Origin: Candidatus Harrysmithiimonas galli
GTDB taxonomy: Bacteria > Bacillota > Bacilli > CAJFEE01
Assembly: GCA_904373265.1 (NCBI GenBank)
Contig: CAJFEE010000008.1
Coordinates: 1,132-65,131, forward strand
Direction of reading: 5' to 3'
Length of the DNA stretch: 64,000 nucleotides
The stretch's first letter is position 1, and every line of letters begins with the position of its first letter. Position numbers and translations under genes: made by a program. Below the pieces are notes generated by a model. The model had not been told where the DNA came from. It saw only the letters and a program-made list of their open reading frames with translations, and did not search any database. Below, piece by piece: positions 590 through 57,760 of the stretch.

Positions 590-630
590 AGAGGTATAAA
601 AGGTTATAATGAACCTTTATACCTCTTTTT
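590..630. terminator. Bidirectional hairpin overlapping the maf stop codon
   Basis: agaggtataaaaggtt (590-605) pairs with aacctttatacctct (612-626). It is flanked by an A-run upstream and a T-run downstream. Confidence 0.45.
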
Positions 631-2494: not shown

Positions 2495-2530
2495 AATATC
2501 TTCCTCCCTACATCGTATATTTTAACATAA

Positions 2531-2560
2531 AAAAAAGAGTTGAGAAACTCTCAACTCTTT
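2531..2560 (-). terminator. Rho-independent terminator of the flagellin gene
   Basis: agagttgaga/tctcaactct 10-bp stem with a short loop. On the minus strand it is followed by a T8 run. Confidence 0.7.
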
Positions 2561-2574
2561 TGAAGATTTTACAA

Positions 2575-3828
2575 TTATTGTAATAATTGCAGTACACCTT
2601 GTGGTACTTGGTTGGCTTGTGCAAGCATAGCTTGAGACGCTTGAGAAAGGATGTTGTTTTTCGTTAACTCCATCATTTCCTTCGCCATATCTACATCGCG
2701 AATACGAGATTCTGCAGAAGATAAGTTTTCAGAAGCTGTAGTTAAGTTATTAATTGTGTGTTCCAAACGGTTTTGTACTGCCCCTAAGCTACTTCTTTGC
2801 GCAGATACTTTTGTTAATGCAGCATTGACTCTTTCAATTGCAGCACTTGCTGACCATTTATCTGTTACATCAATTTGATCAATATCTAGTGCTTTGGAAC
2901 GCATATCATTCATAGACAAGAACGATGTTTGACCACCATTTGCACCAATTTGTGTTAAAATCGCTGAATTTACATCTGCTTCTGCATCTTGTTTTGCACC
3001 GAATACAAAAGTAATGGATTCTCCAACTTTTAATCCACCAGATGCAGCAGCATTAGCAAGACCAGAAATATCAATAGAAACAGCTTTATTTCCTGTTCCA
3101 GATGCAAATACTGCAGAACCTGACAAGAAGGTAAAACTACCACCACTTACTTTAAAGTCAGTAGTCCCACTGCCTCCACCAGCTTGCAATTTAATTGTAC
3201 TTTCAACTCCATCATTATCATAAACTTTAAACTCGAGAACTGTAGTGGTTCCAGACATAGTCTCATTCGTTTTTATTAACGTATAAGAACCATTTACTTG
3301 TGCATCTTTTGCTTGTTCTTGGAAAACCTGTAGTTCATCTTGGGTAATGGTTAGATTTGAGTTGTTATTCACTACGCCACTACCATCTCTTTTTTCAACA
3401 ACCCCTTTAGCTGTACCATCCAATAATTTTTTCGTATTAAATTCTGTTGTATTTCCGATACGGTCAACTTCAGCAATCAACTGATTAATCTCAGCTTGCA
3501 ACTCTGTACGGTCAGCGTCTGTGTTTGTATCGTTTGTTGCTTGAACAGCAAGCTCACGCATACGTTGCAAAATGGAATGAGTTTCGTTTAACGCACCCTC
3601 AGCTGTTTGGATTAGAGAGATAGAGTCGTTCGCATTTTTAGTTGCCATATCCAAACCACGGATTTGCGCACGCATTTTTTCGGAAATTGCTAAACCTGCA
3701 GCATCATCGCCCGCACGGTTAATACGTAAACCTGAAGACAATTTCTCCATATTTTTTGAAGCATTTAATTGATTTGCACCCAATTTATTGTAGGTGTTTA
3801 ATGCACTAATATTGTGATTGATTCTCAT
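2575..3828 (-). CDS. fliC: Flagellin
   Basis: N-terminus [17 protein letters not shown]...[31 protein letters not shown]-terminus [15 protein letters not shown]...[15 protein letters not shown]. The central domain is Ser/Thr/Gly-rich. Confidence 0.96.
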
Positions 3829-4446: not shown

Positions 4447-5406
4447 CTAGCTCTCCACAATATGCTTAACAATTCTCTTCACACCTTGTCCATCTACTAG
4501 ATTGGGTAGTTTTTTGAAACCATTTTTCAAAATTTCTTCAAATCTCTGTTGTAAATCTTCAAAACAATAACAAACAGGTATATTAAACTGTTCAAGACCT
4601 TTCGCATTATTTACTTGATTATCAACAACTTGAATTGGAATAAATGGTGTACCTGTACATAACAATTCATAAACCGTTTGACCACAAGCTGAAATAACAC
4701 CCTCACTTTGCTGCATAAATTGTTTCATTTCATCTGCAGATGAATAAGATACCAATTCTATATTTGAAACAAATTGCTTTTCCATTTCAATCTCATCTAA
4801 ACATGTATCATCTGCACCTATAATAATCTTAAAATTTTTTTCTGTATGTTTCGTACAAATTTCTTTTATTATTCTTGGAATTAAATTTAATATATCCATT
4901 CCTCCAAGTGTGACTAACCATTGATTTTTAACTTTCAATGAATTTACATCATTTACACATTTTTGAAATGGTTCTCTTAAAATCGCATAGGCTACTCCAA
5001 GCAGATCATTTTCAATAACCTTTCTCGAATAGCCTAGACTTTTGGCATTTAATGATGGATTGATAATCGTTGCTGTCTCTGGAAATTTCAAACGACAATT
5101 ATCATCAATAACCCACAGTCTCTTTACTTTTTTGGCCAACCATTCATACACATTTATTGAAGCTAAATATGAATCTATAACTACCTGATCATCTTCGGTA
5201 AGAAAACCTTGTAAAAAATCAATGTTTTTCCAATCTGTATATTGATACTCTCCCTCAATTTGTAATGGAAGTTCAGACATTTTATCTATGATTATTTTTA
5301 CTTCTACTTGATGTTTTTGCAATTCTTTATGGATGGCTAGACAGCGTGTGACATGCCCTAGCCCAATTCCTAAACCACCTTCGGTTAGAATATAAATTTT
5401 CTGCAT
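4447..5406 (-). CDS. PseG-like nucleotide-sugar hydrolase (GT28-like fold)
   Basis: 319 aa with N-terminal GGLGIGLGHVTRCLAI and central GGMD..N. The pattern resembles PseG/SpsG. It abuts the PseB-like gene. Confidence 0.65.
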   Translation of the reverse strand: MQKIYILTEGGLGIGLGHVTRCLAIHKELQKHQVEVKIIIDKMSELPLQIEGEYQYTDWKNIDFLQGFLTEDDQVVIDSYLASINVYEWLAKKVKRLWVIDDNCRLKFPETATIINPSLNAKSLGYSRKVIENDLLGVAYAILREPFQKCVNDVNSLKVKNQWLVTLGGMDILNLIPRIIKEICTKHTEKNFKIIIGADDTCLDEIEMEKQFVSNIELVSYSSADEMKQFMQQSEGVISACGQTVYELLCTGTPFIPIQVVDNQVNNAKGLEQFNIPVCYCFEDLQQRFEEILKNGFKKLPNLVDGQGVKRIVKHIVES

Positions 5407-5407
5407 A

Positions 5408-6421
5408 TCAAAATCCCATTTCTAACTGTTTAATTTTCTCACGTAACGCTTTCACATCTAGCCACTCTGAATTTTTTCCAGAACTGTATTCAAATCCACA
5501 TTCAATCTGTTTTCCACCTGGTGTGAAACACTTATCAAAATCCCACCACTCAAAGTTTGGATAAATAATATAGTGCTTATCATATTCATAGGTATTTCGT
5601 GAATCATCCATTGTAATCATAACTTCATGAATTTTCTCACCTTCACGAATTCCAATTTCCTTCGTTAGTAATGTAGGAGCCATCGCTTCTGCCAGATCTA
5701 TAATTTTAAAAGATGGAATCTTGGAAATATAGGTTTCTCCTCCTTTAGATTCCTCTAATGCTTTAAACACAAGCTGAACCCCTTCTTCAAGAGTAATCCA
5801 AAATCTTGTCATCTCATAATCTGTAATTGGGAGCGCATCTGCCCCCGTTTCAATAAGCTTTGTAAAAAAAGGAATCACCGAACCTCGGCTACCAGCTACA
5901 TTCCCATAACGAACGACAGAAAAAATTGGTCCTTCTTGTTTCAAATATCCATTTGCAGATACAAAGAGCTTGTCAGAAGTTAATTTTGTTGCCCCGTATA
6001 AATTAATCGGATTTACTGCCTTATCTGTCGATAAGGCAACAACCTTTTTCACACCTTGATCTATTGCTGCATCAATCACATTCATTGCGCCATGAATATT
6101 CGTATAAATCGCCTCTGTTGGATTGTATTCACAAGCAGGTACTTGTTTCATCGCCGCTGCGTGAATAACATAATCAACACCATTGAATGCCCGATATAAA
6201 CGATTTTGATCACGAACATCTCCAAGAAAAAAGGAAAGTCGAGCCATTTGACTTTCCTTTAATTTTTTTTGGAATAATAGCTTAACCTGAGATTGTTTGA
6301 ACTCATCACGTGAGAAAATAATGATTTTTTTGGGTTGGAATGATTCAAAAATCATCTCAATACATTTTTTTCCGAAGGAGCCTGTCCCACCTGTAATAAG
6401 TATGGTTTGATTGTTTAACAT
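5408..6421 (-). CDS. pseB: UDP-N-acetylglucosamine 4,6-dehydratase (inverting), PseB/FlaA1/CapD-like
   Basis: 337 aa, ILITGGTGSFGKK Rossmann motif, and a YGATK catalytic motif. Confidence 0.85.
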   Translation of the reverse strand: MLNNQTILITGGTGSFGKKCIEMIFESFQPKKIIIFSRDEFKQSQVKLLFQKKLKESQMARLSFFLGDVRDQNRLYRAFNGVDYVIHAAAMKQVPACEYNPTEAIYTNIHGAMNVIDAAIDQGVKKVVALSTDKAVNPINLYGATKLTSDKLFVSANGYLKQEGPIFSVVRYGNVAGSRGSVIPFFTKLIETGADALPITDYEMTRFWITLEEGVQLVFKALEESKGGETYISKIPSFKIIDLAEAMAPTLLTKEIGIREGEKIHEVMITMDDSRNTYEYDKHYIIYPNFEWWDFDKCFTPGGKQIECGFEYSSGKNSEWLDVKALREKIKQLEMGF

Positions 6422-6477
6422 AGACTTTCACTCCTAAACTTAAAAAACATTTTATCTACATCTATTATAACGTAATT

Positions 6478-7566
6478 TTATGATTTAAAAATATCTAAAT
6501 CACAGTTCCTCAATATTTCTCCAGAATTTTTATTACATAAAAATATTTTTCCAACAATCTCCTCCATTTGATAAGGAAAAATCCCATCCCTTGGTGCAGG
6601 ACGTAAAGCAACTACATCTTCTGGCAGTAACACATCCCCTTTATTTTTATCTACTTTCATATAAAGTGCTCTTCTTTGTACAACCACAGTTTCTTTTTCA
6701 TTTTCTTCCACTTTTTTTATATCAGATCCAAGTGCTAACTCAAGTTCTTTTGAACGAGCAACCATTTCTTTCCATGTTTTTGGATTCATAGAAAAAGGAT
6801 GATCAGGTCCTATCCGGTTATTGTCATCTGTAAAATGCTTTTCTATAACACGTGCCCCTAAAGTAATCGCACCCAAAACTGTCGAATGACCGGGTGTATG
6901 ATCAGATAGTCCAAGTATCATTTTTGGATACTTTTTTGCAAATGCACGTAATACATTCAATTGAATATATTTAAAGTTTTCCAAGCTACCTGTATAATTT
7001 GTATTACATTGCATAAGCACAATTTGTCGATTCCAATTAAGAATTTTTTCGACTGCTCTTTCTACATCCGACATTGTAGAAGCTCCTGTTGCTAAAAGAA
7101 CTGGCTTTCCCTTTTGTGAAATCGTTTCAATAAACTCTATCCAAGTTATGTCTCCTGAACCGATTTTGTAAGCAGGGATGTATGAGTCAAGCATATCAAT
7201 CACTTCATAGTCGTATGGTGTCGTAAAAAAATCAATCTTTGCTTTTTTAGCTTCCTCAATTAAAATGAAGTTCCATTCTCGATTTAATTCGTACTGTTTA
7301 AAAACCTCGTATACAGATTTTTCCCAATTGGCTTGGTGCGAGACTTGAACCCCTAATCGTTTAAAACCTGCATCACTTATAATTTGATCCGCCTTAAAAT
7401 GCTGAAATTTCACTGCATCTGCACCAGCTTCTTTTGCCAACCATATCAAATCTTTTGCTCGGGATAACTCTCCATCATGATTTGAAGCAATATCGGCAAT
7501 AAAATACGTAGGGGATTGTAAAGAAATATTTCGATTACCTATCTTAATACTTGAATCATAATTCAT
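6478..7566 (-). CDS. NeuB-family sugar-PEP condensing synthase (nonulosonic acid synthase-like) with C-terminal SAF domain
   Basis: 362 aa with IADIASNHDGELSRAKDLI...AVKFQ. The length and C-terminal region fit NeuB/PseI/SpsE. Confidence 0.8.
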   Translation of the reverse strand: MNYDSSIKIGNRNISLQSPTYFIADIASNHDGELSRAKDLIWLAKEAGADAVKFQHFKADQIISDAGFKRLGVQVSHQANWEKSVYEVFKQYELNREWNFILIEEAKKAKIDFFTTPYDYEVIDMLDSYIPAYKIGSGDITWIEFIETISQKGKPVLLATGASTMSDVERAVEKILNWNRQIVLMQCNTNYTGSLENFKYIQLNVLRAFAKKYPKMILGLSDHTPGHSTVLGAITLGARVIEKHFTDDNNRIGPDHPFSMNPKTWKEMVARSKELELALGSDIKKVEENEKETVVVQRRALYMKVDKNKGDVLLPEDVVALRPAPRDGIFPYQMEEIVGKIFLCNKNSGEILRNCDLDIFKS

Positions 7567-8438
7567 AACAATTCCTCCAAATAATATGTATATAGATTTT
7601 CAATTACCTCATCGATTGACGGAACCTTATTTTTTCTAAGGATTTTTGCTAATTTTTGTGTATCCAATCCTAAAGTATTTGCGCGAATTATCGGAGAACT
7701 TTTTTCCATCCTCCCTTCGGTTATCGATGCCTGCAAACCAAATACAGAAAGAAATCTACAAATAAAATCATATTTTGAAATAGCTGTTGTCGATGCAATA
7801 TTTAGTACACCTGTATATTTTATATCTAATAATTCCAATAAAATTTTGGAAAAACAGTAAATATCAATACTAGAAGTAAAATAGTCTGCATATCCAATAA
7901 TTGACTGTTTTTCTTGTGCTTGTTGAATAACCCATTCAATAAATGTAGGACGCCCTTTTTGATTCCTAAACCCGACAATATTAGTTCGAACAATAAGAGA
8001 TTCTTTATAAGTTTGTGCTAAACATTCACCGATATATTTCGTTCTTGCATATTCATTCACCAATTTCACATCTGCATCTTCACAATGCAGCGTATTCTCT
8101 TTTTCTAAAAAATAATGATCTGTAGAAATTTGAATAAAATAGCTCCCCACTTCTTTACACACATTTGCTAAAATTCCTGGAAATCTTGCATTTACTATAT
8201 AAGCCTGCTCTTTATTTTCTTCGCAATATTTTAAATCAACAATTGCAATTGCGTTAATAACAATATCAGGCTGTTCTTGTAAGATTATTTCACAAATTTC
8301 CTTCTCATCTGTCCGTACATCTAAACAATACTGTGCATCTTTTCTTGACATGGTTAATACATTCTCATACTTCTTGCTTAGTGTAACATAAAGTGCTTGC
8401 CCAAGCATACCTGTAGAACCTAGTAATAATATTTTCAT
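7563..8438 (-). CDS. RmlD-like NAD(P)-dependent sugar reductase (YerF-like candidate)
   Basis: MKILLLGSTGMLGQAL Rossmann N-terminus. The ORF-track start at 8465 is GTG; the ATG at 8438 is the more likely start. Confidence 0.7.
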   Translation of the reverse strand: MKILLLGSTGMLGQALYVTLSKKYENVLTMSRKDAQYCLDVRTDEKEICEIILQEQPDIVINAIAIVDLKYCEENKEQAYIVNARFPGILANVCKEVGSYFIQISTDHYFLEKENTLHCEDADVKLVNEYARTKYIGECLAQTYKESLIVRTNIVGFRNQKGRPTFIEWVIQQAQEKQSIIGYADYFTSSIDIYCFSKILLELLDIKYTGVLNIASTTAISKYDFICRFLSVFGLQASITEGRMEKSSPIIRANTLGLDTQKLAKILRKNKVPSIDEVIENLYTYYLEELL

Positions 8439-8461
8439 TATTCTTATACCTATCTCTATTC

Positions 8462-10234
8462 TCACTCAAATTGTTCAACAACATCTATAAACGGATATAA
8501 TTCTTCTAATGACGAAGAGCTTAATGTACCATCTTGGTTTACTTTTGTTTGTGCTCTTGGAATCTCCTCAAATCTAATATCTCCAATTATTTCACAAATC
8601 ATTGGACGGTTATCTGACAAAGCCATTTTCAACCCTTCACTCAATTGATTTGTATGTTCAATTTTCAAATAAGGTAATCCGTATAGTTTCGCAATCTCTT
8701 TTAAATCCGGCAATCTAACCCCACTGTCTGCATTACAACCTGCCAAATTTCCTTTAAAATGATTATGTTGCATACTATATATGGACGAATATCCATTGTT
8801 ATTATAAATAAATAGTTTGATTGGTAATTGGTAAGTTGTCAGCAGTTGAAGTTCTTGTAAATTATGTTGCAAACTTCCGTCACCTTCAAAAATAATGGTT
8901 CTTCTCTTTCCACTTGCAATACATGCACCAATTACAGAAGGTAAACCATAACCCATAGAGCCTAAACCGCTTGATGAAACAACTCTTTGATTTTCTTTTA
9001 ATTGTATTCCCAAAACAGACGAAGTAAATACACGACCTGTTGGACTCACAACAAAAACATCTTGATCGTCTGATTGTTTGGATAACTCATATGAAAAATC
9101 TAACCCATAAATTCCTTCAGACTGAACAGGCGGTCTTTCTGAATAAATCGGGTATTTTTCTTTCATTTGTTCACAAAAATTCAGCCATTTAGTTTTTGTA
9201 TTAACAAATTTTTGTTCAGAATAAAACACCAAAAATCCTCGCATAAAATCTTTTGCATGACAACAAATTTTCTTCTGAAAGTCGATAGATGATATATTTA
9301 ATTCGTTTTCATCTATATCTACAATATATTTTTTTGCCTTCTTCGCGAAGTTCTTCTCATTATACGCTGTTAAATGTGCATTAATCCTTGCACCAATGAT
9401 CAATAAAAAATCAGCATTTTGCAAAATAAAATTGGAATAGCGTGGTGCGGGAGAGCCCGGATATCCAAAAAATAATGAATCATTATCTTTAAATAAGCCT
9501 TTGGCACGCCATGTCAACAATGTTGGAATTTTTAATTGTTCAACTAATAGTCTTGCTTCTCGTTCTGCTTGTCCCGAAATTACACCTTGACCAAACAAGA
9601 CAATTGGACTCTTAGCCTGTATAAGTTCACAGTATATTTCTTCAAAGTCTTCTTGTTTTACAATGGTTTGGGCACCCTTTTCCAAATGTGGACAAAATCC
9701 TTTTAATGTTTCTATATCAACATCAGCAGCTTGAATATCTAGAGGGATATCAATCCATACTGGTCCTTTTCTTCCTGTCGTTGCCAAATGTATGGCTTTC
9801 TCTAAATGATAACGAATATCTTCTTTATTCATTACTGTAACTGCATATTTTGTAACATCTTTCACCAATTTTGTAATTTGTACTTCTTGTAGACCCTTCA
9901 CACGCACACCTTCTGGCGCAAGCTCTGTTGTTTTAACTTGCCCAGAAATTACCAGCATTGGTGTGCTATCTTGAAAAGCAGAGACAACTCCAGTAATCGC
10001 ATTCGTTGCTCCTGGTCCTGTTGTTACCATACAAACGCCTAAATGGTTTGTATATTGCCCGTAAGCATCGGCACAAATTGATGTCGCTTGTTCATTTAAA
10101 TTATAGTAAGTCGAAATTTGTTCGCTTCTAGAAACGGAATCTAAAAGATGCATCATACCTCCACCTGAAAGTAAAAATACATCTCTTACTCCAATTTGTT
10201 CTAGATAATGAATTACATAATCTGATAATTTCAT
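8462..10234 (-). CDS. Thiamine-diphosphate-dependent enzyme of the acetolactate-synthase family (YerE-like sugar C-branching candidate)
   Basis: 590 aa with N-terminal ThDP pyrimidine-binding domain (GVCMVTTGPGATN). The C-terminal GDGSLQHNLQEL...NNNGY is a ThDP/Mg-binding motif. It sits inside a CDP-sugar cluster, not an ilv operon. Confidence 0.8.
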   Translation of the reverse strand: MKLSDYVIHYLEQIGVRDVFLLSGGGMMHLLDSVSRSEQISTYYNLNEQATSICADAYGQYTNHLGVCMVTTGPGATNAITGVVSAFQDSTPMLVISGQVKTTELAPEGVRVKGLQEVQITKLVKDVTKYAVTVMNKEDIRYHLEKAIHLATTGRKGPVWIDIPLDIQAADVDIETLKGFCPHLEKGAQTIVKQEDFEEIYCELIQAKSPIVLFGQGVISGQAEREARLLVEQLKIPTLLTWRAKGLFKDNDSLFFGYPGSPAPRYSNFILQNADFLLIIGARINAHLTAYNEKNFAKKAKKYIVDIDENELNISSIDFQKKICCHAKDFMRGFLVFYSEQKFVNTKTKWLNFCEQMKEKYPIYSERPPVQSEGIYGLDFSYELSKQSDDQDVFVVSPTGRVFTSSVLGIQLKENQRVVSSSGLGSMGYGLPSVIGACIASGKRRTIIFEGDGSLQHNLQELQLLTTYQLPIKLFIYNNNGYSSIYSMQHNHFKGNLAGCNADSGVRLPDLKEIAKLYGLPYLKIEHTNQLSEGLKMALSDNRPMICEIIGDIRFEEIPRAQTKVNQDGTLSSSSLEELYPFIDVVEQFE

Positions 10235-10246
10235 TTTAGAATTACC

Positions 10247-11274
10247 TCATTTTTCTACAAAACTAAACTTTTTTAAAAGTTCTTCTGTATGATCATCTAG
10301 AATATCTTCTTGTGAAACACTATGATCAGGAACTTCACATACTTTACATACTGGATGCATTCCTCTATTATGACATAAATGCAACCTCAAAAAATTGTTT
10401 CTTATTTTGGAATTCCAAATCTCAGTTATTTTTCTTTTGTGGAAATTTCCATATATAATCGGTTGATGCGCAATACAACAAGGAACAACATTTCCGTTAG
10501 GTAAAACATACAGCATATAGAACGGAGTTGGACAACATTCTAACTTTTCTGATACTGTATCTTCGCATTTCTTCAATCCTGAGACCATTCCTTCATAATC
10601 CACCCCTAAAAATGCTGGAATGATGTTGTCAATATGAATCGTATCACAAATATTTTTAAACATATTTATAAAAACATCTTCTTCTCCTTTATCCAAAGCG
10701 ACATCTACAGTTTTTATATGAATTTTACACCCCCCCCCGCATTTCTGGAATAAGTATATAAAAAAGTCAAATTTTCTATAAATTTCTCCATATTTATATT
10801 ATAATTACATACTCTCTTATACTTTTCTTCTGTAACTCCTTGAATAGATATTACAATTTTCGATAAACCTGCATCTATTATTTTTTTAGACAAGTCTCTA
10901 GTGAGTAAAGATCCATTAGTAACTAATTGAATACATTCTGCTATGTCCTTTTTATATGCATACTCAATCATCTCCGACAAATAACGATTTAATGTAGGTT
11001 CTCCAATACTTGTCAGGACAAGTGTTTTAATTTTTTTAGGAAAATACACCAACTGATCTATCGCCTTAGTAAAATCTTCATAAGAGAAATATTTTCGAAT
11101 AAGGTGTTTTCTTTCTTCGTGCCCAGTAGGTAAAGATTGCGCACAATACTCACAGCTGAAGTTACAAAAATCTCCCATATAAAATCCTACAACATATGGT
11201 GTATCTATAGGAAGCTCCTTGTATAAAACAGTTCTATTATGGGATTCCTTAGAGGATGCATATTTTTCTTTCAT
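10247..11274 (-). pseudogene. Radical-SAM/SPASM enzyme interrupted by a frameshift in a poly-G tract (phase-OFF as sequenced)
   Basis: The N-terminal half (10714..11274) carries CNFSCEYC. The C-terminal half (10247..10696) carries the Cys-rich SPASM region. Both align colinearly with the intact 347-aa paralogue next door. The RBS aaggaggg precedes the ATG at 11274. Confidence 0.85.
10730..10738 (-). repeat. Homopolymeric G9 tract (C9 on plus strand) at the frameshift point
   Basis: Read directly. The minus strand is aat gcg ggg ggg ggt gta aaa ttc ata taa. G10 or G7 would give ...NAGGGCKIHIKTVDVALDKGEEDVF..., continuous with the downstream ORF. Confidence 0.95.
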
Positions 11275-11298
11275 GAAGCATTCCCTCCTTTCTAACAA

Positions 11299-12342
11299 TC
11301 AGTATAACAGTTCCTTATATTTTTCTAGCAATTTCTCTACATGAGGATCAATTTCATCTCCCTCATATGGAACATCATTAGGATAATCACAGTCTTTGCA
11401 AGCAGAATTTTCAAAACGCTTCCCTTCCAACATACCAATTAAAAAGCGATTATGATCCTGACTATTCCACGCTTGTAACAATGTTGTAGTCCGAACATTC
11501 CCAAGCTCTTTACATGGATTAAATGGTGCACCACAAGGTCGAATATCCCCATCTGGGGCAATACTTAGCATATAAAAACTTAAATAACAAGCTTTTTGTT
11601 TTAGATGTGGTCTTCCAAAACGGCTAGTTGTCATATTGGATTCATTATCTCCTAAAATATTTGTATAATCTACATCTGCATATAATGGCTTAATGGTTTC
11701 AATGTGAATTGAATCGCAAATATTACCAAATATTTCAAAAAACTTTTCTTTCTCCCCATCTTCTAATGCAATATCTGCAATTTTAATATTCACTTGACAT
11801 TTTCCTCTGCTATATTCATAAAAATATGTTAAATTTTCTACATATTTATCAAAATTAATCTTTACTCCACATACTTCTTTATATTTTTCTGCTGTCAATC
11901 CTTGTAAAGAAATAAAAATCCGATCCAATCCGGCATCAATAATTTCTTCACTCTTTTTCTTTGTCAAAAGTATCCCGTTTGTAATAAAAGAAACTTCTTC
12001 TGAAACTTTTTCATCTTTGACAATCCGAACCATTTCGGAAAATCTCGGATTTGCTAACGATTCACCTTGTCCTGATAAACTAATAGACTTCACTTTCCTA
12101 GGAAACTGTTTTAATTGTTCAACTGTTTTTATAAAAATTTCCCAATCCATATGTTTATATACAAATCCTTTTTTCTTTAACTCTTCTCCACCAAGAGAAT
12201 GAATACAATATTTACATCCAATATTACAGATTTGAGAAGGACAGATAGTAACTGCATATGGTGTATCTAAAGGAAGTACCTCATGTAAATTTACACGGTT
12301 TGGATTAAAAACGGGTTGAAACTTTGCTTTGATTTCTTTCAT
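11299..12342 (-). CDS. Radical-SAM enzyme with C-terminal SPASM/twitch-like Cys-rich domain
   Basis: 347 aa, CNIGCKYC (CxxxCxxC). C-terminal cysteines: CYLSF...RPCG...CKDCDYP. Confidence 0.85.
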   Translation of the reverse strand: MKEIKAKFQPVFNPNRVNLHEVLPLDTPYAVTICPSQICNIGCKYCIHSLGGEELKKKGFVYKHMDWEIFIKTVEQLKQFPRKVKSISLSGQGESLANPRFSEMVRIVKDEKVSEEVSFITNGILLTKKKSEEIIDAGLDRIFISLQGLTAEKYKEVCGVKINFDKYVENLTYFYEYSRGKCQVNIKIADIALEDGEKEKFFEIFGNICDSIHIETIKPLYADVDYTNILGDNESNMTTSRFGRPHLKQKACYLSFYMLSIAPDGDIRPCGAPFNPCKELGNVRTTTLLQAWNSQDHNRFLIGMLEGKRFENSACKDCDYPNDVPYEGDEIDPHVEKLLEKYKELLY

Positions 12343-13481
12343 TGTACAATCTCCTCCTCTTCATATAAACAATATAAAACCGTATCACATGGTGTAATTG
12401 AATGATGTCTCAAGTATAATTTATACTTCGGAACCAATTTTTTACAATAAGAAATAATGTCTATTAAATCTTCTTTTTTATGATATACACAAATTGCTAA
12501 ATAAGGATGATTGGTCTTTATTGTTTCAGACGCACCTTGTAATGCCTCTAATTCACTACCTTCTATGTCCATTTTCATAAATGTTACTCGTTTCCCATTA
12601 ATTACTTTATCAATGGTGTCTGTATAAAAATATTGTATATCATCATTTGCACCTTGGCTCTGAATGGTTGTTGCCATTGTTAATTCACCATAATCATTAC
12701 AATAATATGCGCATTTATCTTTTTTATTTGAAGCAGCTACTTCATATAATTCAAAATTTGGTAACCCCTTAAGATTTTCTTTAATAAGCTCTGCTGAAGA
12801 ATGAATGGGTTCAAATGCATAAATTCGTTCATACTTTCCATCTGTAAATTCTAAAAACTGTTCTATTGTATCACCGTTATATGCACCTATGTCCACGAAA
12901 ATATGGTTCTCTAATTTAGGAATTAAATTTTTTAAAAAATACTGCTGTGTTGAAGTCATCACCTCCTCATAATAAGACAAATCACCTGTTAACACACTAT
13001 TTAACACACCACAAAATACATTTCTTGACTCCTCATCTTCAAGCAGCTGATAGCTTTTTTCAAACATCTTTAAATGATCAAGTACATATTTTTTTGTAAA
13101 CCCTTTAAACAACGGGTTAAATACATCAAAACGAAATGTATGAATATGCGACATATTCAACTGCTTAATCTGCTCTTGTTTTTCTTTATAAAAGCTGTCA
13201 TTTATAATTACAAATACTTCTTGTTCCATATGTTTCAACTCATTTGGAGCCAATACTGGTAACTCTTTAATTGTTGTACCTTGCTTATTCGGATCATTAT
13301 CACAAAATGCATAGATCTCAACACCATTTTCTTTTAGCAATTTTAAAGCGAGAAACCCTTGATCTCCCGCACCAAAAATAATAACACGCACAGGAGAAGT
13401 ATTTTGATAGCGTTCTAAAAACAGTTCAAATTTGGTTTTCTCTTCACTTAAAATTATTCTACTTTCCAAAGTATCTCCCAT
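12339..13481 (-). CDS. FkbM-family SAM-dependent methyltransferase with N-terminal Rossmann-like domain
   Basis: 380 aa. FMKMDIEGSELEALQGA is typical of the FkbM family. The N-terminal VIIFGAGDQG...DNDPNKQG module is also present. Confidence 0.75.
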   Translation of the reverse strand: MGDTLESRIILSEEKTKFELFLERYQNTSPVRVIIFGAGDQGFLALKLLKENGVEIYAFCDNDPNKQGTTIKELPVLAPNELKHMEQEVFVIINDSFYKEKQEQIKQLNMSHIHTFRFDVFNPLFKGFTKKYVLDHLKMFEKSYQLLEDEESRNVFCGVLNSVLTGDLSYYEEVMTSTQQYFLKNLIPKLENHIFVDIGAYNGDTIEQFLEFTDGKYERIYAFEPIHSSAELIKENLKGLPNFELYEVAASNKKDKCAYYCNDYGELTMATTIQSQGANDDIQYFYTDTIDKVINGKRVTFMKMDIEGSELEALQGASETIKTNHPYLAICVYHKKEDLIDIISYCKKLVPKYKLYLRHHSITPCDTVLYCLYEEEEIVQ

Positions 13482-13495
13482 ATTCTATTCTCTCC

Positions 13496-14350
13496 TTAAT
13501 AAAGTAACTGACCCAAACAAATTTGTTTTCTATGATTCTGATACCACTCAGTCAGTTGATTTATAGAATGCATAATCTCTTCAATGTCTAATCTTATTTC
13601 TTTTACAATTCTATCATTATTCGATGTGTACTCCAATCCATATCCGTCTTTTGCCACAAAAATCGGATAATCCAGCCCTACTGTTTCTTTCACAATTTGC
13701 GCCAACTCATATAGCTCATATATTCGACCTGATGTTGCATTATAGTTTTGATATTTCATCTTATTTTCTATAAAATAAGCAACCATTTTACACAAATCAT
13801 CAATGAATAAATAATCAAATTTCGTATTTTGACGAATGGTAATCGGAAATCCGTATATGGCTTTACAAATTGCATTTGAGATAAATCTACGCTGCCAAAT
13901 TTCATACTTACCGAAAATTCCGAATAAACGGAAGTTATATACATTCGGGAGTTGACTTGCCAATTGCTGCATTGTATACATGCAAAGTCCATAAGTATCC
14001 GAAGGAATCACTTGACCCAAATCGTCCTCAGAAACCTGTACGATATCTTTCTGCTTGCCATATTCTGCGCCACTTCCAAAATAAAGCATCTTTCCATACA
14101 AATTATGATGGGTTGCCAGATTGGTAAACATACGCAAACGCTTTTCAAAATAATCAATCGAACCATCTCTTACATCCAATGCATTGATAACAATATCAAA
14201 ATTTCCTTTAGAAAGACACTGAAATATTGCATTTTCGTCCAATACATCTAGCTCTTGATGACTAGGTGCAACAATTTCATACTTATCTTCAAAATATTCT
14301 TGTATATTTTTCCCAATAAAACCTGATGATCCTAAAATTAAAATTTTCAC
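13496..14350 (-). CDS. Short NAD-dependent epimerase/reductase (CDP-paratose/abequose-synthase-sized 4-ketoreductase candidate)
   Basis: 284 aa with MKILILGSSGFIGKNI Rossmann N-terminus. Confidence 0.7.
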   Translation of the reverse strand: MKILILGSSGFIGKNIQEYFEDKYEIVAPSHQELDVLDENAIFQCLSKGNFDIVINALDVRDGSIDYFEKRLRMFTNLATHHNLYGKMLYFGSGAEYGKQKDIVQVSEDDLGQVIPSDTYGLCMYTMQQLASQLPNVYNFRLFGIFGKYEIWQRRFISNAICKAIYGFPITIRQNTKFDYLFIDDLCKMVAYFIENKMKYQNYNATSGRIYELYELAQIVKETVGLDYPIFVAKDGYGLEYTSNNDRIVKEIRLDIEEIMHSINQLTEWYQNHRKQICLGQLLY

Positions 14351-14380
14351 ACCAATTCTTCATAGCCTCCATATTTTTAT

Positions 14381-15556
14381 TTATGTAAACGATAAAACCT
14401 CATTTTTCAATCCCATACTTTCTATTTGTTCAATAATATTATTAGAATGCAGCATCGAGCATACAATAATAATTGCATCTGCATTTTGATTCTTATAAAG
14501 AACATTGGGAGCTTTAATTGTTTTATCAAAAAACATTTTATCAATTTTACTGCTATTATTATCTACAAAGCATTTTATATTACACTTTCCAAGATTTGTT
14601 GTAGTTAATAAATTCATTGTAAAAGCACCTGTGCCCCACACAATAACATCTTTGCCTTTTTGTATAATTAAATTAATTTTTTCTTGAATTTCTTTTAAGT
14701 CATCTTCTTGACAAGACAAATATTCTTTAACAGCCAAAGCAGTCTCATTATCCTTACAAATTTCTTCAGCTACACTGCATTTTTTAAATACACCTATAGT
14801 GAGTGGTGATGGAAACTCTTTATGATAATAAGTAAAATTATTTCCATCAATCTTTATTAAACCACAACTTGCACATAAATTCTTTAAAGACATCGGTGAA
14901 AAATAATTAATATGCTCTATATTAAATTGATCCGCTACTGGAGTTATAACTTTATTTACTCTAGAATAATCTGGTACATTAATAATCAAAAGCCCATTTT
15001 CACATAAATATTCCTTGATTTTCAAAATTGCTTTATCAGGATGATATAAATGTTCAGCAACACACATTAAAAAAACCACATCAAATTTCCCCTTTAAATC
15101 ATCCGGAACCTCATCATAAACACTTCCTTGCACACCTTTTAGTCCATATTCTTTCAGAATTTTAATACTTGTTAAAGAAGGATCTAAACCTTGAATATTT
15201 TTATATCCTGCTTTTTTCAATTCTAATTCAAAATGAGCATTTCCGACACCAATATTTAAAAGCTCCCCCCCGAGGACTGAATTTTCTGACAAATACTTTT
15301 GACAAATCTTGTAATTGCTGAACTCATGTTCCTTTACATCTTCACCATACCAATTACAATTCTCATAATAATAATCGTAATCTTCTTTTGTAGCTGTAGT
15401 ATCTGCATATACAAATCCACATTCTACACAGGAAACAACATCATAACCATTCGGTAAACGAAATTCTTCCGGAACCGTCATCTTTATTTCGCGAATAAAT
15501 TCAACTGTTTCACTGTTACAAATCGGACATTTTCTCGCTTTACATTTTTTCACCAT
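14381..15556 (-). CDS. Class I SAM-dependent methyltransferase with N-terminal zinc ribbon and C-terminal Rossmann-like module
   Basis: 391 aa. CPICNS...CVECG zinc ribbon, LLNIGVGNAHF SAM motif I, and a C-terminal VIVWGTGAF...DNNSSK module. Confidence 0.75.
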   Translation of the reverse strand: MVKKCKARKCPICNSETVEFIREIKMTVPEEFRLPNGYDVVSCVECGFVYADTTATKEDYDYYYENCNWYGEDVKEHEFSNYKICQKYLSENSVLGGELLNIGVGNAHFELELKKAGYKNIQGLDPSLTSIKILKEYGLKGVQGSVYDEVPDDLKGKFDVVFLMCVAEHLYHPDKAILKIKEYLCENGLLIINVPDYSRVNKVITPVADQFNIEHINYFSPMSLKNLCASCGLIKIDGNNFTYYHKEFPSPLTIGVFKKCSVAEEICKDNETALAVKEYLSCQEDDLKEIQEKINLIIQKGKDVIVWGTGAFTMNLLTTTNLGKCNIKCFVDNNSSKIDKMFFDKTIKAPNVLYKNQNADAIIIVCSMLHSNNIIEQIESMGLKNEVLSFT

Positions 15557-16899
15557 ATATTATCACCCTTTTTTACTCTTTTTCTAATCTTCTCTACCAT
15601 AACCCCAATCATCTCTTCTGTCATACCTGGGTATACACCAATCCAAAAACTATCTTTCATAATTTGATCTGTATTTTCTAAATTACCTACAACACGATAT
15701 TCTGTTTCTGTCAAATTCTCCATACATGGATGACGCAACAAGTTACCTGCAAACAACATTCTTGTTTGAATTTGATTTTCTTCCAGAAATTGAACCAATT
15801 CATCTCGTGTGACTGGACAATTCTCCTTTACGGTAATTAAAAAGCCAAACCAACTTGGATTTGCACAAGGTGCTTGTTCAGGTAAAAGCAAAAAATCTTG
15901 CAGATCTTTTAATCCCTCTTTTAACAACAGCCAATTTTCCCTACGTTGTTCAATAAATTGTGGAAGTTTTTTTAGCTGTGCATAACCAATTGCCGCTTGC
16001 ATATCTGTCACTTTTAAATTAAAGCCAAAATGGGCATATACATATTTATGGTCATATCCAACCGGTAAAGAACCAAATTGCTGCGTGAAACGACATTGAC
16101 AAGTGTTGTCTTTCCCTGACGGACACCAACAATCTCTGCCCCAATCACGAAAAGACTTAATAATCTGATACAACTTCCGATCATTCGTATAAAGCGCTCC
16201 TCCTTCGCCCATTGTCATATGATGTGGTGGATAAAAGCTAGAAGTACCAATATGTCCGATTGTTCCTGTATATTTCCATTCTCCATCCAGTTCATATTGA
16301 CTGCCAAGTGCATCACAATTATCCTCAATTAACCATAAATCATATTTATCACAAAAAGCTTTGACAGCCTTTAAATCAAAAGGATTTCCTAATGTATGTG
16401 CAATCATCACTGCTTTTGTCTTTGAAGAATAGGCCTTTTCAAGATACGTCACATCAATATTATATTGTGGTAACGTTACATCAACAAATACTGGAACCGC
16501 ACCATATTGTACGATTGGCGCAACCGTTGTTGGAAACCCTGCAGCAACTGTAATGACTTCATCTCCTCGACAAATTCGTTTCTTTCCTAATTTTGAAGAA
16601 GTCAAGGCCCAAAATGCAAGGAGATTTGCAGAGGAACCTGAGTTGGTAAGTAAACAATACCGGACTTGTAAAAACTCTGCTAAACTTTTTTCAAACCGAT
16701 CAGCATATTTCCCTGCAGTTAACCAAAATTCAAGGCTACTATCAACCAAATTCACCATTTCATCTTCATCAAAAACACGACCAGCATAAGAAATTTTTTC
16801 CCCGATTTGATAGCTTTTCGGCTGCATATAATTTTGATAATACTGCTTAACAAGCGACAAAATTGCTTCCTTCGCCTGCGCTTGATTTTTATTTTCCAT
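15550..16899 (-). CDS. rfbH: CDP-4-keto-6-deoxy-D-glucose 3-dehydrase (E1; RfbH/DdhC, DegT family)
   Basis: 449 aa. Long colinear matches to RfbH as I recall it, e.g. GDEVITVAAGFPTTV, IAHTLGN, FRDWGRDCWC...DNTC, GYDHKY, NLKVTDMQAA, PSWFGF, FWIGVYPG. Confidence 0.9.
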   Translation of the reverse strand: MENKNQAQAKEAILSLVKQYYQNYMQPKSYQIGEKISYAGRVFDEDEMVNLVDSSLEFWLTAGKYADRFEKSLAEFLQVRYCLLTNSGSSANLLAFWALTSSKLGKKRICRGDEVITVAAGFPTTVAPIVQYGAVPVFVDVTLPQYNIDVTYLEKAYSSKTKAVMIAHTLGNPFDLKAVKAFCDKYDLWLIEDNCDALGSQYELDGEWKYTGTIGHIGTSSFYPPHHMTMGEGGALYTNDRKLYQIIKSFRDWGRDCWCPSGKDNTCQCRFTQQFGSLPVGYDHKYVYAHFGFNLKVTDMQAAIGYAQLKKLPQFIEQRRENWLLLKEGLKDLQDFLLLPEQAPCANPSWFGFLITVKENCPVTRDELVQFLEENQIQTRMLFAGNLLRHPCMENLTETEYRVVGNLENTDQIMKDSFWIGVYPGMTEEMIGVMVEKIRKRVKKGDNIW

Positions 16900-17974
16900 A
16901 TTTCATATTCTCCACGTATTCCAAAATTTGTCGGGTAGTAAATTTACACATATCTTGATTTTTTCTGTATGCATCATACCATTCGACAGTTTTTTTCATT
17001 CCAACTTGTATTTCCCAAACAGGATGCCAATTTAATACCTTTTTAATTTTATCACAGTCTAAACGTAAAAGATTTGCTTCATGTAGAGGATTTGCTTCCT
17101 TTGTCACTTCCCATACTAGAGAAACATCATTCAAATCATTCCATTGGTCACAAAATGCTTGAACCAATTCTTTTGTCTGTAAGCAATCTGAATCATTAGG
17201 TCCTACATTATACGCACCCGCATATACCTGATTTCTGTGCTGAAGTTCTGCAAGTCGTAAATACACAAAAATTGGCTCCAATACATGCTGATACGGGCGA
17301 ACCGAGTACGGCGAACGCAAGATAATTTTTTCCTGATTTTGCACCGCACGAAAGCAATCCGGAATAATACGGTCTTTTGCAAAATCTCCGCCACCAATTA
17401 CATTTCCAGAACGAACTGTACTGACAGATAAATTTTCACGCTGTGAAAAGAAGGATTTTCGATAGGCATCTGTTACCAGCTCAGAACAAGATTTGGAATT
17501 TGAATACGGATCATAACCGTTTAACCGATCTTCTTCTCGATAACCTCGCTGCCATTCCTTATTTTCATATACCTTATCCGTTGTAATATTGACAACCGAA
17601 CGCACACACGAATTCAAACGAACACATTCCATTAAATGAACCGTTCCCATCACATTTGTTTCATAGGTATATACCGGATTTTTATACGATTCTCGCACCA
17701 ATGGCTGTGCCGCCATATGAAACACAATTTCCGGCTGTACTTCTTGGAAAACTTTATTTAACCGTTTGAAATCCTGCATAGGTGCAAGATGGCTTTGTAG
17801 CTTTTGATCCAGCTGTAATAAATCATACAAATTATTTTTATCATTCGGTTGTAAGGCATAACCTACAACATTTGCACCAAGCAAATGTAAAGTTTCACAA
17901 ATCCAGCTTCCTTTAAATCCTGTATGACCTGTAACAAGAACCGTTTTTCCTTGATAAAAATTTACAAGACTCAT
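16889..17974 (-). CDS. rfbG: CDP-glucose 4,6-dehydratase
   Basis: FYQGKTVLVTGHTGFKGSW N-terminus. The likely start is the ATG at 17974, overlapping the rfbF stop as ATGA; the ORF track extends to 18010. Confidence 0.9.
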   Translation of the reverse strand: MSLVNFYQGKTVLVTGHTGFKGSWICETLHLLGANVVGYALQPNDKNNLYDLLQLDQKLQSHLAPMQDFKRLNKVFQEVQPEIVFHMAAQPLVRESYKNPVYTYETNVMGTVHLMECVRLNSCVRSVVNITTDKVYENKEWQRGYREEDRLNGYDPYSNSKSCSELVTDAYRKSFFSQRENLSVSTVRSGNVIGGGDFAKDRIIPDCFRAVQNQEKIILRSPYSVRPYQHVLEPIFVYLRLAELQHRNQVYAGAYNVGPNDSDCLQTKELVQAFCDQWNDLNDVSLVWEVTKEANPLHEANLLRLDCDKIKKVLNWHPVWEIQVGMKKTVEWYDAYRKNQDMCKFTTRQILEYVENMKYGK

Positions 17975-18744
17975 GCCCATTGTTTCCATGGAGCTTGTCC
18001 TCTTTCCCAAAGTTCCTCTAAAATATTTTTATCCCGCAATGTGTCCATACATTGCCAAAATCCAGTATGGCGATATGCCATAAGCTGGTTTGTATTTGCT
18101 AGAGTTTCCAATGGATAGCCTTCAAATGATTCATTTTCATCTCGAATATACGAAAAAACATCCGGTTGCAGTATCATAAATCCGGCATTGATCCACCCAC
18201 CGTCTTCCTTACTTTTTTCACGAAAACTTTGAATTCGATCGTCTTCTTCAATATCAAGTACACCGAATCTTCCTCCCGGTTGAACGGAAGTAATCGTTGC
18301 AAGTTTACCATGTTTTTTATGAAACTTCACAACCTCTGTAATATTCACATCACTCACTCCGTCACCATAGGTAAGCAGAAACGGTTCATTGCCAATATAA
18401 GGCTCAATTTTTTTCACACGTCCACCTGTACTTGTATGTAATCCTGTATCAATTAAAGTGACCTTCCAAGGCTCAGATGTATTATTATGAATTTGCATTT
18501 TATTATTTTTCAAATCAAAAGTTACATCTGACATATGTAAGAAATAGTCAGAAAAAAACTCTTTAATAACATAACCTTTATATCCCAAACAAATGATAAA
18601 CTCTGTATAACCGTAATGCGCGTAGCTTTTCATAATATGCCAGAGTATGGGTTTGCCCCCGATTTCAATCATTGGCTTCGGTTTTAGATGAGATTCCTCA
18701 GAAATACGTGTTCCAAGACCACCTGCTAAAATGACGACTTTCAA
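17971..18744 (-). CDS. rfbF: Glucose-1-phosphate cytidylyltransferase
   Basis: 257 aa with MKVVILAGGLGTRISEESHLKPKPMIEIGGKPILWHIMK. Confidence 0.92.
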   Translation of the reverse strand: MKVVILAGGLGTRISEESHLKPKPMIEIGGKPILWHIMKSYAHYGYTEFIICLGYKGYVIKEFFSDYFLHMSDVTFDLKNNKMQIHNNTSEPWKVTLIDTGLHTSTGGRVKKIEPYIGNEPFLLTYGDGVSDVNITEVVKFHKKHGKLATITSVQPGGRFGVLDIEEDDRIQSFREKSKEDGGWINAGFMILQPDVFSYIRDENESFEGYPLETLANTNQLMAYRHTGFWQCMDTLRDKNILEELWERGQAPWKQWA

Positions 18745-20606
18745 ATTTGTTCCTCCAATCTTCCATAACCATATTCTTTTAAGGTGTTATAATATAAATT
18801 TGTAATTTCTTTATACTCCCTATGATAATTTTCATCCTCCACTTCATATATTTCCTTCAAGCCAATTATGCAGGTTTCATATGTATCTTTTAAAATCATT
18901 TGAATATCATCATTATTTTTCTTATGATAATAAGCAATAGAAATTTTGACTAAATGAAACGTTTTACCACAAAGTAGAAGATAAAGCAAACGTAAAATTC
19001 GCTTGTTTTTATAAAAAAATTGAAATTGTTGAAAAACAGATAAAAAACACAAATGTTGCTTTAAACGTTCCTTATACAAAGCAAATTTTGGGAAATCATT
19101 AATATAATACTCCTCTATAACCTCTTTAGATAGACTTTTAAAATCTTCTTCTTGCTCAGAAGCACCCTCATGGATTACAATAACATTAATTCCATAAACA
19201 TCTCCCAACATACATAACAATAACTCATAGAATATATGTGAATAGAAATTTATACACAATTTCTTTGTATAATTTTCCTTCACATAAGAAATAGCCTCCA
19301 CTTTTAATAGTAAATCTCTTCGAAAAACATTCCCAGATAAATAGTTTGCAGTAAATCCATACTGTCTAATCGCATCTTCACCTTGGCTTGCCAATCCTGT
19401 ACTCTGAATTCTTTGTTGACCATCGCCATATGCTTTAATCATTGACAAATTTCTGTTTGAGACAATCACCTGCAATAGAATATCCAGTTTTTTAATAAAT
19501 ATAGTATCTTCATCACTCAGCATAAAGACAAACTTCCCTTTTGCCAAATTAATAACTTGAGCAAAATTCAGTGTAGAAAATTGGTTACTTTCAAAAGAAA
19601 AATAGGTAATTCTTGCGTCTTCTATTTTTGAAATTTTTTCATAAAATTTTGCTGTATAATTATCTGTACCGTTATTTGAAACCACAATCTCAATTTCATC
19701 ATCATACTCTGATTGTAAATGATGTATGACACTTTCATACGCTCGATGACCCCGATTGTAACTTGGGATTCCGATTGTCAATAAAATATTATCCCGTTTT
19801 CTTGTTAAATCATGAATACGTTGATTATGGATTTCATGAATTAAATCCTCTATATCCTTTTTAGTAAAACTTTGACTTGTACTGATAAAATTTCGTGGTA
19901 AATATGCATTGCATCCTATAAAATAACTTACAACATCCTGTTGATTTCCAAAAATTTTGGTCTGCTGCATAAAAAATAAAAAACGTGACATATCAGGTAG
20001 TTGAAAAAAGGAAAATAAATACTTTATCTTTTCTGTGTAAACATACAATTTTTTCTCATTAGGTATTCTTCTAATATAAGAAATTATCTCATAGATATTT
20101 CCGTCATTTGCGAATAAGTAGTCAGCAAATGGGTTGGTTTTTCTTGGCAATTCTACTGCTCTTTTATCATCAACATCTATACTGATAATTTTTTCTTCTA
20201 GGCGATTATAAAAATATTTTTTTGTGGTTAAAGTCGGAATAAACCACAAGTCTAAATCTTCAAAAGAAACATCTTCATCTATATAAATATTATCCTTCAA
20301 CTGTTCTATAGTTGTTTCATAATTTTCTTTACATTCTTCTAAATTCGGCTCAATAAATGCTTCGTACACAATTTGACGAATCTCCTCTTTTGGAAAGCCA
20401 TATTCTTGTGCCTGTGCAAAAAAATTCATACATTGATCATAATTTTCTAAACGAAACATAAAAAAAGCATAATGTAAATAAAACTCTGCTTTTTGATCGT
20501 TAGAAGCATAAACCAAGACTCGCTCTAATTGTTGATACGCTTCCAAAGCTTGTTGAGTATTTTCAATGTGACAAATTTTTTCTAGTTGCTGCAAAAGAGC
20601 ATCCAT
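18741..20606 (-). CDS. Family-2 glycosyltransferase with N-terminal TPR-like region (flagellin glycosyltransferase candidate)
   Basis: 621 aa. GT2 signature LLTIGIPSYNRGH...IVVSNNGTDN and an SDEDT acidic motif. It is the first gene of the island. Confidence 0.7.
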   Translation of the reverse strand: MDALLQQLEKICHIENTQQALEAYQQLERVLVYASNDQKAEFYLHYAFFMFRLENYDQCMNFFAQAQEYGFPKEEIRQIVYEAFIEPNLEECKENYETTIEQLKDNIYIDEDVSFEDLDLWFIPTLTTKKYFYNRLEEKIISIDVDDKRAVELPRKTNPFADYLFANDGNIYEIISYIRRIPNEKKLYVYTEKIKYLFSFFQLPDMSRFLFFMQQTKIFGNQQDVVSYFIGCNAYLPRNFISTSQSFTKKDIEDLIHEIHNQRIHDLTRKRDNILLTIGIPSYNRGHRAYESVIHHLQSEYDDEIEIVVSNNGTDNYTAKFYEKISKIEDARITYFSFESNQFSTLNFAQVINLAKGKFVFMLSDEDTIFIKKLDILLQVIVSNRNLSMIKAYGDGQQRIQSTGLASQGEDAIRQYGFTANYLSGNVFRRDLLLKVEAISYVKENYTKKLCINFYSHIFYELLLCMLGDVYGINVIVIHEGASEQEEDFKSLSKEVIEEYYINDFPKFALYKERLKQHLCFLSVFQQFQFFYKNKRILRLLYLLLCGKTFHLVKISIAYYHKKNNDDIQMILKDTYETCIIGLKEIYEVEDENYHREYKEITNLYYNTLKEYGYGRLEEQI

Positions 20607-31415: not shown

Positions 31416-31907
31416 TCATAATTTTTTTTTCAAATATGAAATAAGTCCTCCTGATGATACCAACTCAATAATGTGCGGCGGAATTTTATCACAAACATAT
31501 GATTTCCCTGTAGTTAAATTTTGGATAATCCCTTTTTCATAATCAACTTGCAGTTTATCGTCTGCTGAAATTTCATGTGTATCTTTGCACTCAATCGCAA
31601 GAATTCCTAAATTGATACAATTTCGATAAAAAATTCTTGCATAGGATTTTGCCAGGATGGTTCGAATCCCTAGTTGTCGTAAAGCCAGTGGAGCTGTTTC
31701 ACGACTTGACCCTGAACCACAGTTATTTTCCGTTACAAAAATATCTCCAGGATTACACCGTTTTGCAAAATCTGGATCAATTGGATACATTGCATATTTT
31801 GCAGCCTCTTCAATCGGTAATTCCATATATGCAGGTGGAGAAATAATATCTGTATTGATATTATCTCCATATTTCAAGGCTTTACCTACTCTACCAATCA
31901 TGACCAT
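31416..31907 (-). CDS. Aconitase-family hydratase small subunit (short LeuD/HacB/DmdB-like form)
   Basis: 163 aa with GDNINTD and GSGSSRE motifs. Confidence 0.85.
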   Translation of the reverse strand: MVMIGRVGKALKYGDNINTDIISPPAYMELPIEEAAKYAMYPIDPDFAKRCNPGDIFVTENNCGSGSSRETAPLALRQLGIRTILAKSYARIFYRNCINLGILAIECKDTHEISADDKLQVDYEKGIIQNLTTGKSYVCDKIPPHIIELVSSGGLISYLKKKL

Positions 31908-57471: not shown

Positions 57472-57760
57472 AATCCATTTATATAAATAAAAACAGTCTT
57501 TCGCCCCATAGCTTCAGCGCTAAAGGGGCGAAAGACCGCGGTACCACCCTTCTTATGGACAAACTGTCCACATCTCTCTATTTACTTAAAACACATAAAT
57601 AGATCCGCCTTAACGCAGCGTAACGTCTATAATTTTGGCAAATCTCAGCCGTTTGTTATAGCACTCCTTGGTGATTTTCATTGGAATAGAAGCACCGACT
57701 CACACCTCCGTCGGCTCTCTGGATGTCTTCTAAAACAACTACTTTCCAAATCAATGTTTT
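57472..57760 (-). promoter_or_regulatory. T-box riboswitch leader controlling ilvB-N-C-leuB-C-D
   Basis: Minus strand carries the T-box sequence AAGGGUGGUACCGCG (57550-57537). The terminator is GUCUUUCGCCCC...GGGGCGAAAGAC plus a U-run (57536-57485). The AG-bulge and distal loop read AGAGAG-CCGAC-GGAGGUGUGA-GUCGG. The specifier loop UGAAAAUCA gives AUC (Ile) in my manual fold (57675-57673). Confidence 0.85.

Follow-up and report, generated by a model that had tools for sequence, protein, structure and literature searches.

Poly-G contingency genes are known from the flagellar glycosylation locus of Campylobacter jejuni, where they include Cj1295, maf genes and others (PMC3068675, PMC13130089), and a poly-G switch also acts in the pilin glycosylation gene pgtA of Neisseria, alleles of which occur with or without the tract (PMC2193922). 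In Clostridioides difficile, the flagellar switch is a site-specific inversion upstream of flgB (PMC5386303). The locus that we describe here, a G9 run inside a radical-SAM/SPASM gene of a flagellin glycosylation island, is very probably a simple-sequence contingency switch driven by slipped-strand mispairing, and the copy at hand would be in its OFF state. As in C. jejuni, intragenic poly-G tracts of about 8-11 residues sit in glycan-tailoring genes beside flagellin and maf and set ON and OFF states by frameshift, several independently variable tracts occur in one island, and the pathway appears to be of the nonulosonic-acid type (PseB, NeuB/PseI-like). The differences lie in the host, which belongs to the low-GC Bacillota and not to the Campylobacterota, and in the enzyme that is switched, a radical-SAM/SPASM protein. 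To our knowledge, this class is not among the phase-variable flagellar genes of Campylobacter.

Other comparisons are instructive as well. With Neisseria pgtA the locus shares a coding-region poly-G tract in a gene for surface-protein glycosylation and the existence of tractless alleles (see the SVRRELL methyltransferase below), while it differs from it in the appendage concerned (flagellum versus pilus), in enzyme class and in phylum. The poly-A tract of swrA in Bacillus subtilis is likewise a site of homopolymer frameshifting. Both swrA and the C. difficile inversion resemble the present locus in switching flagellum-related traits of Firmicutes stochastically ON and OFF, but they govern flagellum production or swarming, whereas glycan tailoring is at issue here. 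Finally, dnaX and IS elements carry slippage or -1 frameshift sites that are fixed in length among relatives and often come with stimulatory elements. The likeness to these sites is a homopolymer at the point where two overlapping frames of one protein meet; the difference is that the length here varies in the DNA and that no structure was detected downstream. The slipped-strand contingency mechanism itself is already known, and it is the host group that is new.

The window, by which we mean the whole 64-kb stretch of DNA that was analysed, comes from an uncultured species represented by MAGs only, and no rRNA was found in these 64 kb. We define its flagellin glycosylation island by the presence of a flagellin gene and a gene for a Maf/PseD-like transferase (together 617..3828), next to which lies a co-directional block of sugar-biosynthesis genes holding both switches (Table 1). 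The order of the block is PseG-like, PseB, NeuB/PseI-like, RmlD-like, ThDP enzyme, split radical-SAM gene and second radical-SAM gene, followed by FkbM methyltransferase, epimerase, methyltransferase, RfbH, dehydratase, nucleotidyltransferase and GT2. PseB scores above its NCBIfam cut-off (516 vs 407.75), whereas the PseG-like protein (137.6 vs 153.55) and the PseI/NeuB-like protein (233 vs 340 and 273 vs 399.65) score under theirs, and the aminotransferase scores as an RfbH-type 3-dehydrase (15550-16899; 741 bits vs a cut-off of 423) and not as PseC. The ThDP-dependent enzyme (8462-10234) is acetolactate-synthase-like, and its presence in the flagellin island together with that of the RfbH-type 3-dehydrase may point to a sugar that is branched or of the 3,6-dideoxy type, besides a nonulosonic acid. 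Elsewhere in the window, a T-box leader (57521-57763, minus strand, 113.9 bits) lies between genes for dihydroxy-acid dehydratase and the large subunit of acetolactate synthase, immediately upstream of the latter.

Table 1. Coordinates of the features of the island (positions in the window unless a locus is named)
Feature	Position	Strand	Remark
Maf/PseD-like flagellin glycosyltransferase (Maf_flag10_N, MptE-like)	617-2494	-	
Flagellin (Flagellin_N/C)	2575-3828	-	
Co-directional sugar-biosynthesis block	4447..20606	-	holds both switches
Radical-SAM/SPASM gene, whole	11274->10247	-	split by the tract into 186-aa and 149-aa ORFs
Upstream half, radical SAM, 186 aa	10714..11274	-	CX3CX2C motif CNFSCEYC; premature TAA four codons past the tract
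Poly-G tract (G9 on coding strand, C9 on plus)	10730..10738	-	OFF length here; candidate hypermutable switch
Downstream half, SPASM / auxiliary Fe-S cluster domain, 160 codons + stop	10247..10729	-	readable only with a +1 or -2 tract change
Intact tandem paralogue, radical SAM/SPASM, 347 aa	11299..12342	-	no tract; YSRG--KC at the tract site
Class I SAM methyltransferase gene (Methyltransf_23), 391 aa	14381..15556	-	carries the second tract
Second poly-G tract (G7; C7 on plus)	15265..15271	-	in frame, ON
Third radical-SAM/SPASM paralogue (paralogue B)	L001 8892-9899; L002 8893-9899; L023 5892-6899		

On the minus strand, the gene is broken by the G9 tract into two ORFs (10714..11298 and 10247..10696, the latter of 149 aa and in the +1 frame). 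Read as sequenced, the frame ends ...YSRNAGGGVKFI*, with its stop at 10714, while the computed G10 frame runs on as ...NAGGGCKIHIKTVDVALDKGEEDVF..., from which the G7 and G4 readings differ only in having fewer glycines. Rebuilt in silico, G4, G7, G10 and G13 each yield a single protein of 340-343 aa, and G5, G6, G8, G9, G11 and G12 are out of frame and yield a truncated one. At the 34% GC of the window, the expected number of G/C runs of at least nine is 0.03 (iid) to 0.09 (first-order Markov), and GGG is a minority codon that makes up 12.9% of the Gly codons in the window. The gene most likely starts at the ATG at 11274 (MKEKY...), which matches the public calls: the exact 186-aa product (P0062) is called on 14 public contigs. 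We also considered whether the 149-aa SPASM ORF could be translated separately from a TTG, and set this aside because no Shine-Dalgarno-like sequence precedes that start. An earlier note on this DNA, made from its letters alone, had placed the C9 run exactly, had read a frame that stops after it and is restored by G10 or G7 (to which G4 can be added), and had assigned the locus to a flagellin glycosylation island; all of this holds, with flagellin, Maf, PseB and other island genes present. Two of its claims stand in part. The run, which it took for the sole long G/C homopolymer, is indeed the longest G/C run in the window, but the C7 run in the methyltransferase gene is a second variable tract; and although both ORFs at the break are as claimed, the TTG start at 11298 that it implied is less likely than the ATG.

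The protein predicted from the G10 reading (342 aa) carries the CNFSCEYC motif at residues 37-44 and scores above gathering for both Radical_SAM (PF04055, 59.8 bits vs a cut-off of 29.5) and SPASM (PF13186, 48 bits vs 21.5), so that cluster motif and Pfam scores together would place the restored product in the radical SAM/SPASM class. It aligns end to end with the intact tandem paralogue (39% identity, E 1e-82), in keeping with the colinearity that the earlier note had seen. The tract codes for a Gly loop, an insertion relative to most homologues (YSRG--KC), at a position that appears to tolerate changes in length, and the SPASM cysteines are conserved in the downstream half when it is aligned with homologues. 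No NCBIfam equivalog scores above cut-off for the radical-SAM enzyme and no solved structure assigns its reaction; its C-terminal SPASM part is similar to the auxiliary-cluster domain of BtrN, a sugar dehydrogenase.

A homology search with this gene returned intact relatives at no more than 54% identity and, in addition, a truncated protein of 191 aa ending ...NTGGGVKFI*, all 12 contigs of which are G9 (as were all of the first nine loci retrieved). This uniformity suggested a fixed frameshift, be it programmed recoding or a fixed pseudogene, but it arose because the loci had been chosen by their match to a truncated protein, an ascertainment bias, and the idea was overturned by exact matches to ON proteins. 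These were found by looking up the hypothetical full-length and truncated products of various G lengths exactly in a public protein collection. The full-length G10 proteins of both the window allele (P0066, 342 aa) and a second allele (P0065, 347 aa) are present there, as is the ON protein P0073, and the same 90% cluster holds products of the G8 (182 aa), G9 (186 aa), G11 (183 aa) and G7 (341 aa) types. In the DNA of the 31 loci that were fetched, we read G7 once, G8 three times, G9 17 times (18 including the window), G10 five times and G11 four times, the remaining locus (L033) ending at the tract and giving no length. Counted per product, the contigs read comprise roughly 26 G9, 11 G11, nine G10, four G8 and one G7, although these are not independent counts as ENA, Logan and NCBI may hold the same samples. 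The sequence pattern of the tract flanks had no match among the JGI metagenome contigs scanned.

Could G9 nevertheless be the functional length, with RNA-polymerase slippage or a -1 ribosomal frameshift on G GGG GGG yielding the full-length enzyme? Two diverged alleles most often have G9 and, by sequence reasoning, the product of a -1 shift on G GGG GGG would be identical to that of G10; leaky expression of OFF lengths via transcriptional slippage is also possible. However, genomes with in-frame G10 and G7 and with out-of-frame G8 and G11 share backgrounds, which means that no fixed recoding site is kept, and the existence of in-frame alleles in the DNA makes recoding unnecessary. The RNA 3' of the tract has no significant stimulatory structure (z -1.13; 32 of 200 shuffles fold as well), and neither the length nor the out-of-frame layout is conserved among relatives (G7-G11), unlike at a programmed frameshift or slippage site. 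We consider programmed recoding very unlikely.

The loci fall into five haplotype groups, each defined by 2,650 bp flanking the tract with 0 SNPs within the group. The group of the window contains G8, G9, G10 and G11, the second G9 and G10, the third G8 and G9, the fourth G9 and G10, and the fifth G7 and G11, which amounts to at least seven changes of tract length against no substitution within the five groups. Longer comparisons with the window give the same picture: over 8,879 bp, the sole difference of L017 is one G; over 14.5 kb, L015 differs by one mismatch and by one G in each of both tracts; and over about 7 kb (7,029 bp) the ON locus L013 (72x) differs by three mismatches and one G, while L026 is identical over 14.6 kb. 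Repeat number is therefore polymorphic on identical backgrounds and between near-identical genomes, G7 to G11 being found on haplotypes with 0-2 SNPs in the 2,650 bp, in both in-frame (ON) and out-of-frame (OFF) states.

Homopolymers are prone to error, and it could be argued that sequencing or assembly miscalls made both the frameshift of the window and the variation in length, the more so as two variant contigs are thin (3.6x and 5.4x). Yet G9 is found on 26 contigs (14 + 12) from many samples and at least three assemblers, and is thus not an isolated assembly error. The contig names give coverages of 72x and 43x for G10, 18x for G11 and 31x for G9, and G8, G9, G10 and G11 were each found in at least three separate samples, so that every length other than G9 recurs in this way with the exception of G7. 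Since lengths are repeated across samples and at 18-72x, miscalls fail to explain the pattern, and we regard an artefact as very improbable.

A contingency switch should be borne by a living gene, and the substitutions between the window and the L001 allele speak to this. Over the 160 codons downstream of the tract, read in the restored frame, there are seven synonymous to four non-synonymous changes (pN/pS 0.14; binomial p 0.0015 for the synonymous excess), and the same substitutions in the two wrong frames give 2:9 and 1:9. The upstream part shows 13:11 (pN/pS 0.21). In the restored frame, purifying selection acts on the downstream half, and the contrast of 7:4 with 2:9 and 1:9 shows that it is not part of a pseudogene in decay. 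The fetched loci of three alleles have no further stops or indels, while two cluster members whose source loci were not traced (P0075, P0076) have aberrant N-termini at the C-half.

These data bear directly on the opposite view, namely that the gene is dispensable or dying, its tract being merely mutable DNA in an unneeded gene that drifts neutrally in length and is in frame only by accident. OFF lengths do dominate, with about 41 of 51 contigs against about 10 of 51 (~20%) for ON lengths, a share below the one-third expected under neutral length drift, and there is no sign that ON is favoured in the sampled habitats. The window strain has no paralogue B, and in L001 that gene has a second frameshift, which shows that paralogues of the family are being lost, and P0075 and P0076 may be damaged copies. 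Neutral sequence, on the other hand, would not be expected to have, both before and after the tract, an excess of synonymous changes in the restored frame (pN/pS 0.14-0.21), and it is hard to reconcile with fetched loci of three alleles that are free of stop codons and further indels, or with an unbroken tract that persists in all three of them and also in a paralogue of 54% identity, most forms of which are ON. A dying gene is unlikely on this evidence. The proposal of the earlier note, a candidate phase-variable switch that is OFF and not dead, has on the whole been strengthened: comparing tract length in related assemblies, as it had advised, revealed G7-G11 in one species on identical or near-identical flanks, exact full-length proteins exist for the ON lengths (G10, G7), and selection in the restored frame agrees with its view of two undecayed halves, P0075 and P0076 apart. 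The two scenarios that it had set against the switch, an assembly error and a fixed pseudogene with further damage, both lose ground by the tract comparison.

The 5' end of the switched gene deserves separate mention. Alleles that are ~98% identical elsewhere cannot be aligned over its first ~20 codons and the spacer upstream of them (window 11211-11303 vs L001 8860-10078), which points to a breakpoint, of recombination or of an indel, where the paralogues adjoin. A chimeric origin of the window gene, from paralogue B and gene C, was considered as well, but its N-terminus has no match to paralogue B, and it is instead a diverged allele.

Under the contingency-switch reading, slipped-strand mispairing at replication would add G's to the tract or remove them. 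G7 and G10 would then lead to the full-length enzyme of 341-342 aa (ON), and G8, G9 and G11 to the N-terminal half alone, a product of 182-186 aa that would be devoid of the SPASM Fe-S domain (OFF). Switching is probably reversible and frequent within one population, and ON/OFF changes would be expected to alter the modification of the flagellin glycan and hence antigenicity or recognition by phages and antibodies. In a public MAG, the G11 state, which would be OFF, is annotated as two distinct proteins, a 'radical SAM protein' and a 'SPASM domain-containing protein' (HJA40303.1 / HJA40304.1; L021 7001-8030), an example of how the annotation of MAGs can conceal switches of this kind.

The radical-SAM tract is not the only variable one in the island. 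The methyltransferase tract, in frame in the window, has G7, G8, G9, G10 or G16 in other assemblies, of which G8 and G9 are OFF and G10 and G16 ON; the products of OFF assemblies are split into 100+308 aa or are 315 aa long, and the tract varies independently of the radical-SAM tract. The SVRRELL allele of this methyltransferase, a frequent one (390 aa, 55 contigs), is free of the tract and seems to be locked ON. Between the two radical-SAM genes of the window, strains like L001 have a third radical-SAM/SPASM paralogue, the paralogue B mentioned above as absent from the window strain. An A7 run (GAAAAAAAT) marks a frameshift of this gene in L001, L002, L003, L006 and L007, with an additional C frameshift in L001, whereas in L023-L025 the run is A8 and the gene intact (335 aa). 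The radical-SAM tract, the methyltransferase poly-G and, in some strains, the poly-A of the third paralogue would together give rise to combinatorial glycoforms. Outside the island, the sole A/T homopolymer of at least nine in the window is a T9 on the plus strand (31422-31430), at the 3' end of a minus-strand ORF (31416-31907).

Similar tracts were found in related families. In the P0001 paralogue family, which is 54% identical to the switched gene, a tract lies at the corresponding codon, and the products are those expected of G9 and G12 (ON) as well as of G8, G10 and G11 (OFF), with ON forms in the majority. One such gene (L010 978-2006) lies between the epimerase and FkbM methyltransferase genes of an alternative island arrangement with flanks 91-94% identical to the window, and its tract (1518-1526, G9) is in frame. 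A more distant family (P0053/P0207/P0009) has a G6-G8 tract 12 codons downstream, with an ON member of 342 aa and OFF members of 197 and 201 aa. For distant homologues we relied on a contig scan, among whose listed matches the window species is absent. An Anaerovibrio MAG (L037) has three G8-G9 tracts within 5 kb (1834-1841, 5348-5356, 6123-6130), one of them (G8) in frame inside its radical-SAM homologue, and a Selenomonadaceae MAG has an out-of-frame G8 inside its own (L061 6824-6831), both at places in the homologue other than that of the window tract. A contig of 44% GC has a G9 in the methyltransferase of a homologous glycosylation cluster (L012 995-1003), and some of the tracts in these three loci coincide with apparent gene splits. 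In all, there are four independent tract positions across this radical-SAM/SPASM enzyme family.

Full-text literature searches brought up no account of flagellin-glycan genes being switched by SSRs in Clostridia, Lachnospiraceae or other gut Bacillota, in agreement with the earlier remark that poly-G switching is not a standard feature of low-GC Gram-positive flagellin islands. In a 2026 survey of flagellar glycosylation in Clostridium, phase variation is cited for Campylobacter only, and a study of a Geobacillus island mentions it only for alternative flagellin genes. It is quite possible, if somewhat short of probable, that a multi-locus SSR 'phasome' for the flagellar glycan has arisen by convergent evolution in flagellated gut anaerobes other than Campylobacterota, with radical-SAM/SPASM enzymes as a recurrent target and combinatorial glycoforms as the outcome. 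Its carriers would be this Bacillota species, related Clostridia-like lineages, Anaerovibrio and Selenomonadaceae MAGs, and the two poly-G and one poly-A tracts described here would, by switching independently, supply the combinations.

Flagellins of gut Firmicutes are dominant commensal antigens whose variation is little known, and work on phase variation in gut commensals has for the most part dealt with invertible promoters. Against this background, the locus would represent Campylobacter-style homopolymer tract variation in flagellin-glycan tailoring genes of an uncultured gut Bacillota, with ON and OFF alleles in many metagenomes and the same pattern in several further anaerobe lineages. 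'Frameshifted pseudogenes' annotated in MAGs at G/C runs, such as the HJA40303/HJA40304 pair, can be live switches, and the frequencies of phasotypes across hosts could be mined from public metagenome reads. If such a phasome exists, the glycoforms that it generates could shape how antibodies, TLR5 or phages recognise the flagellins of commensal bacteria.
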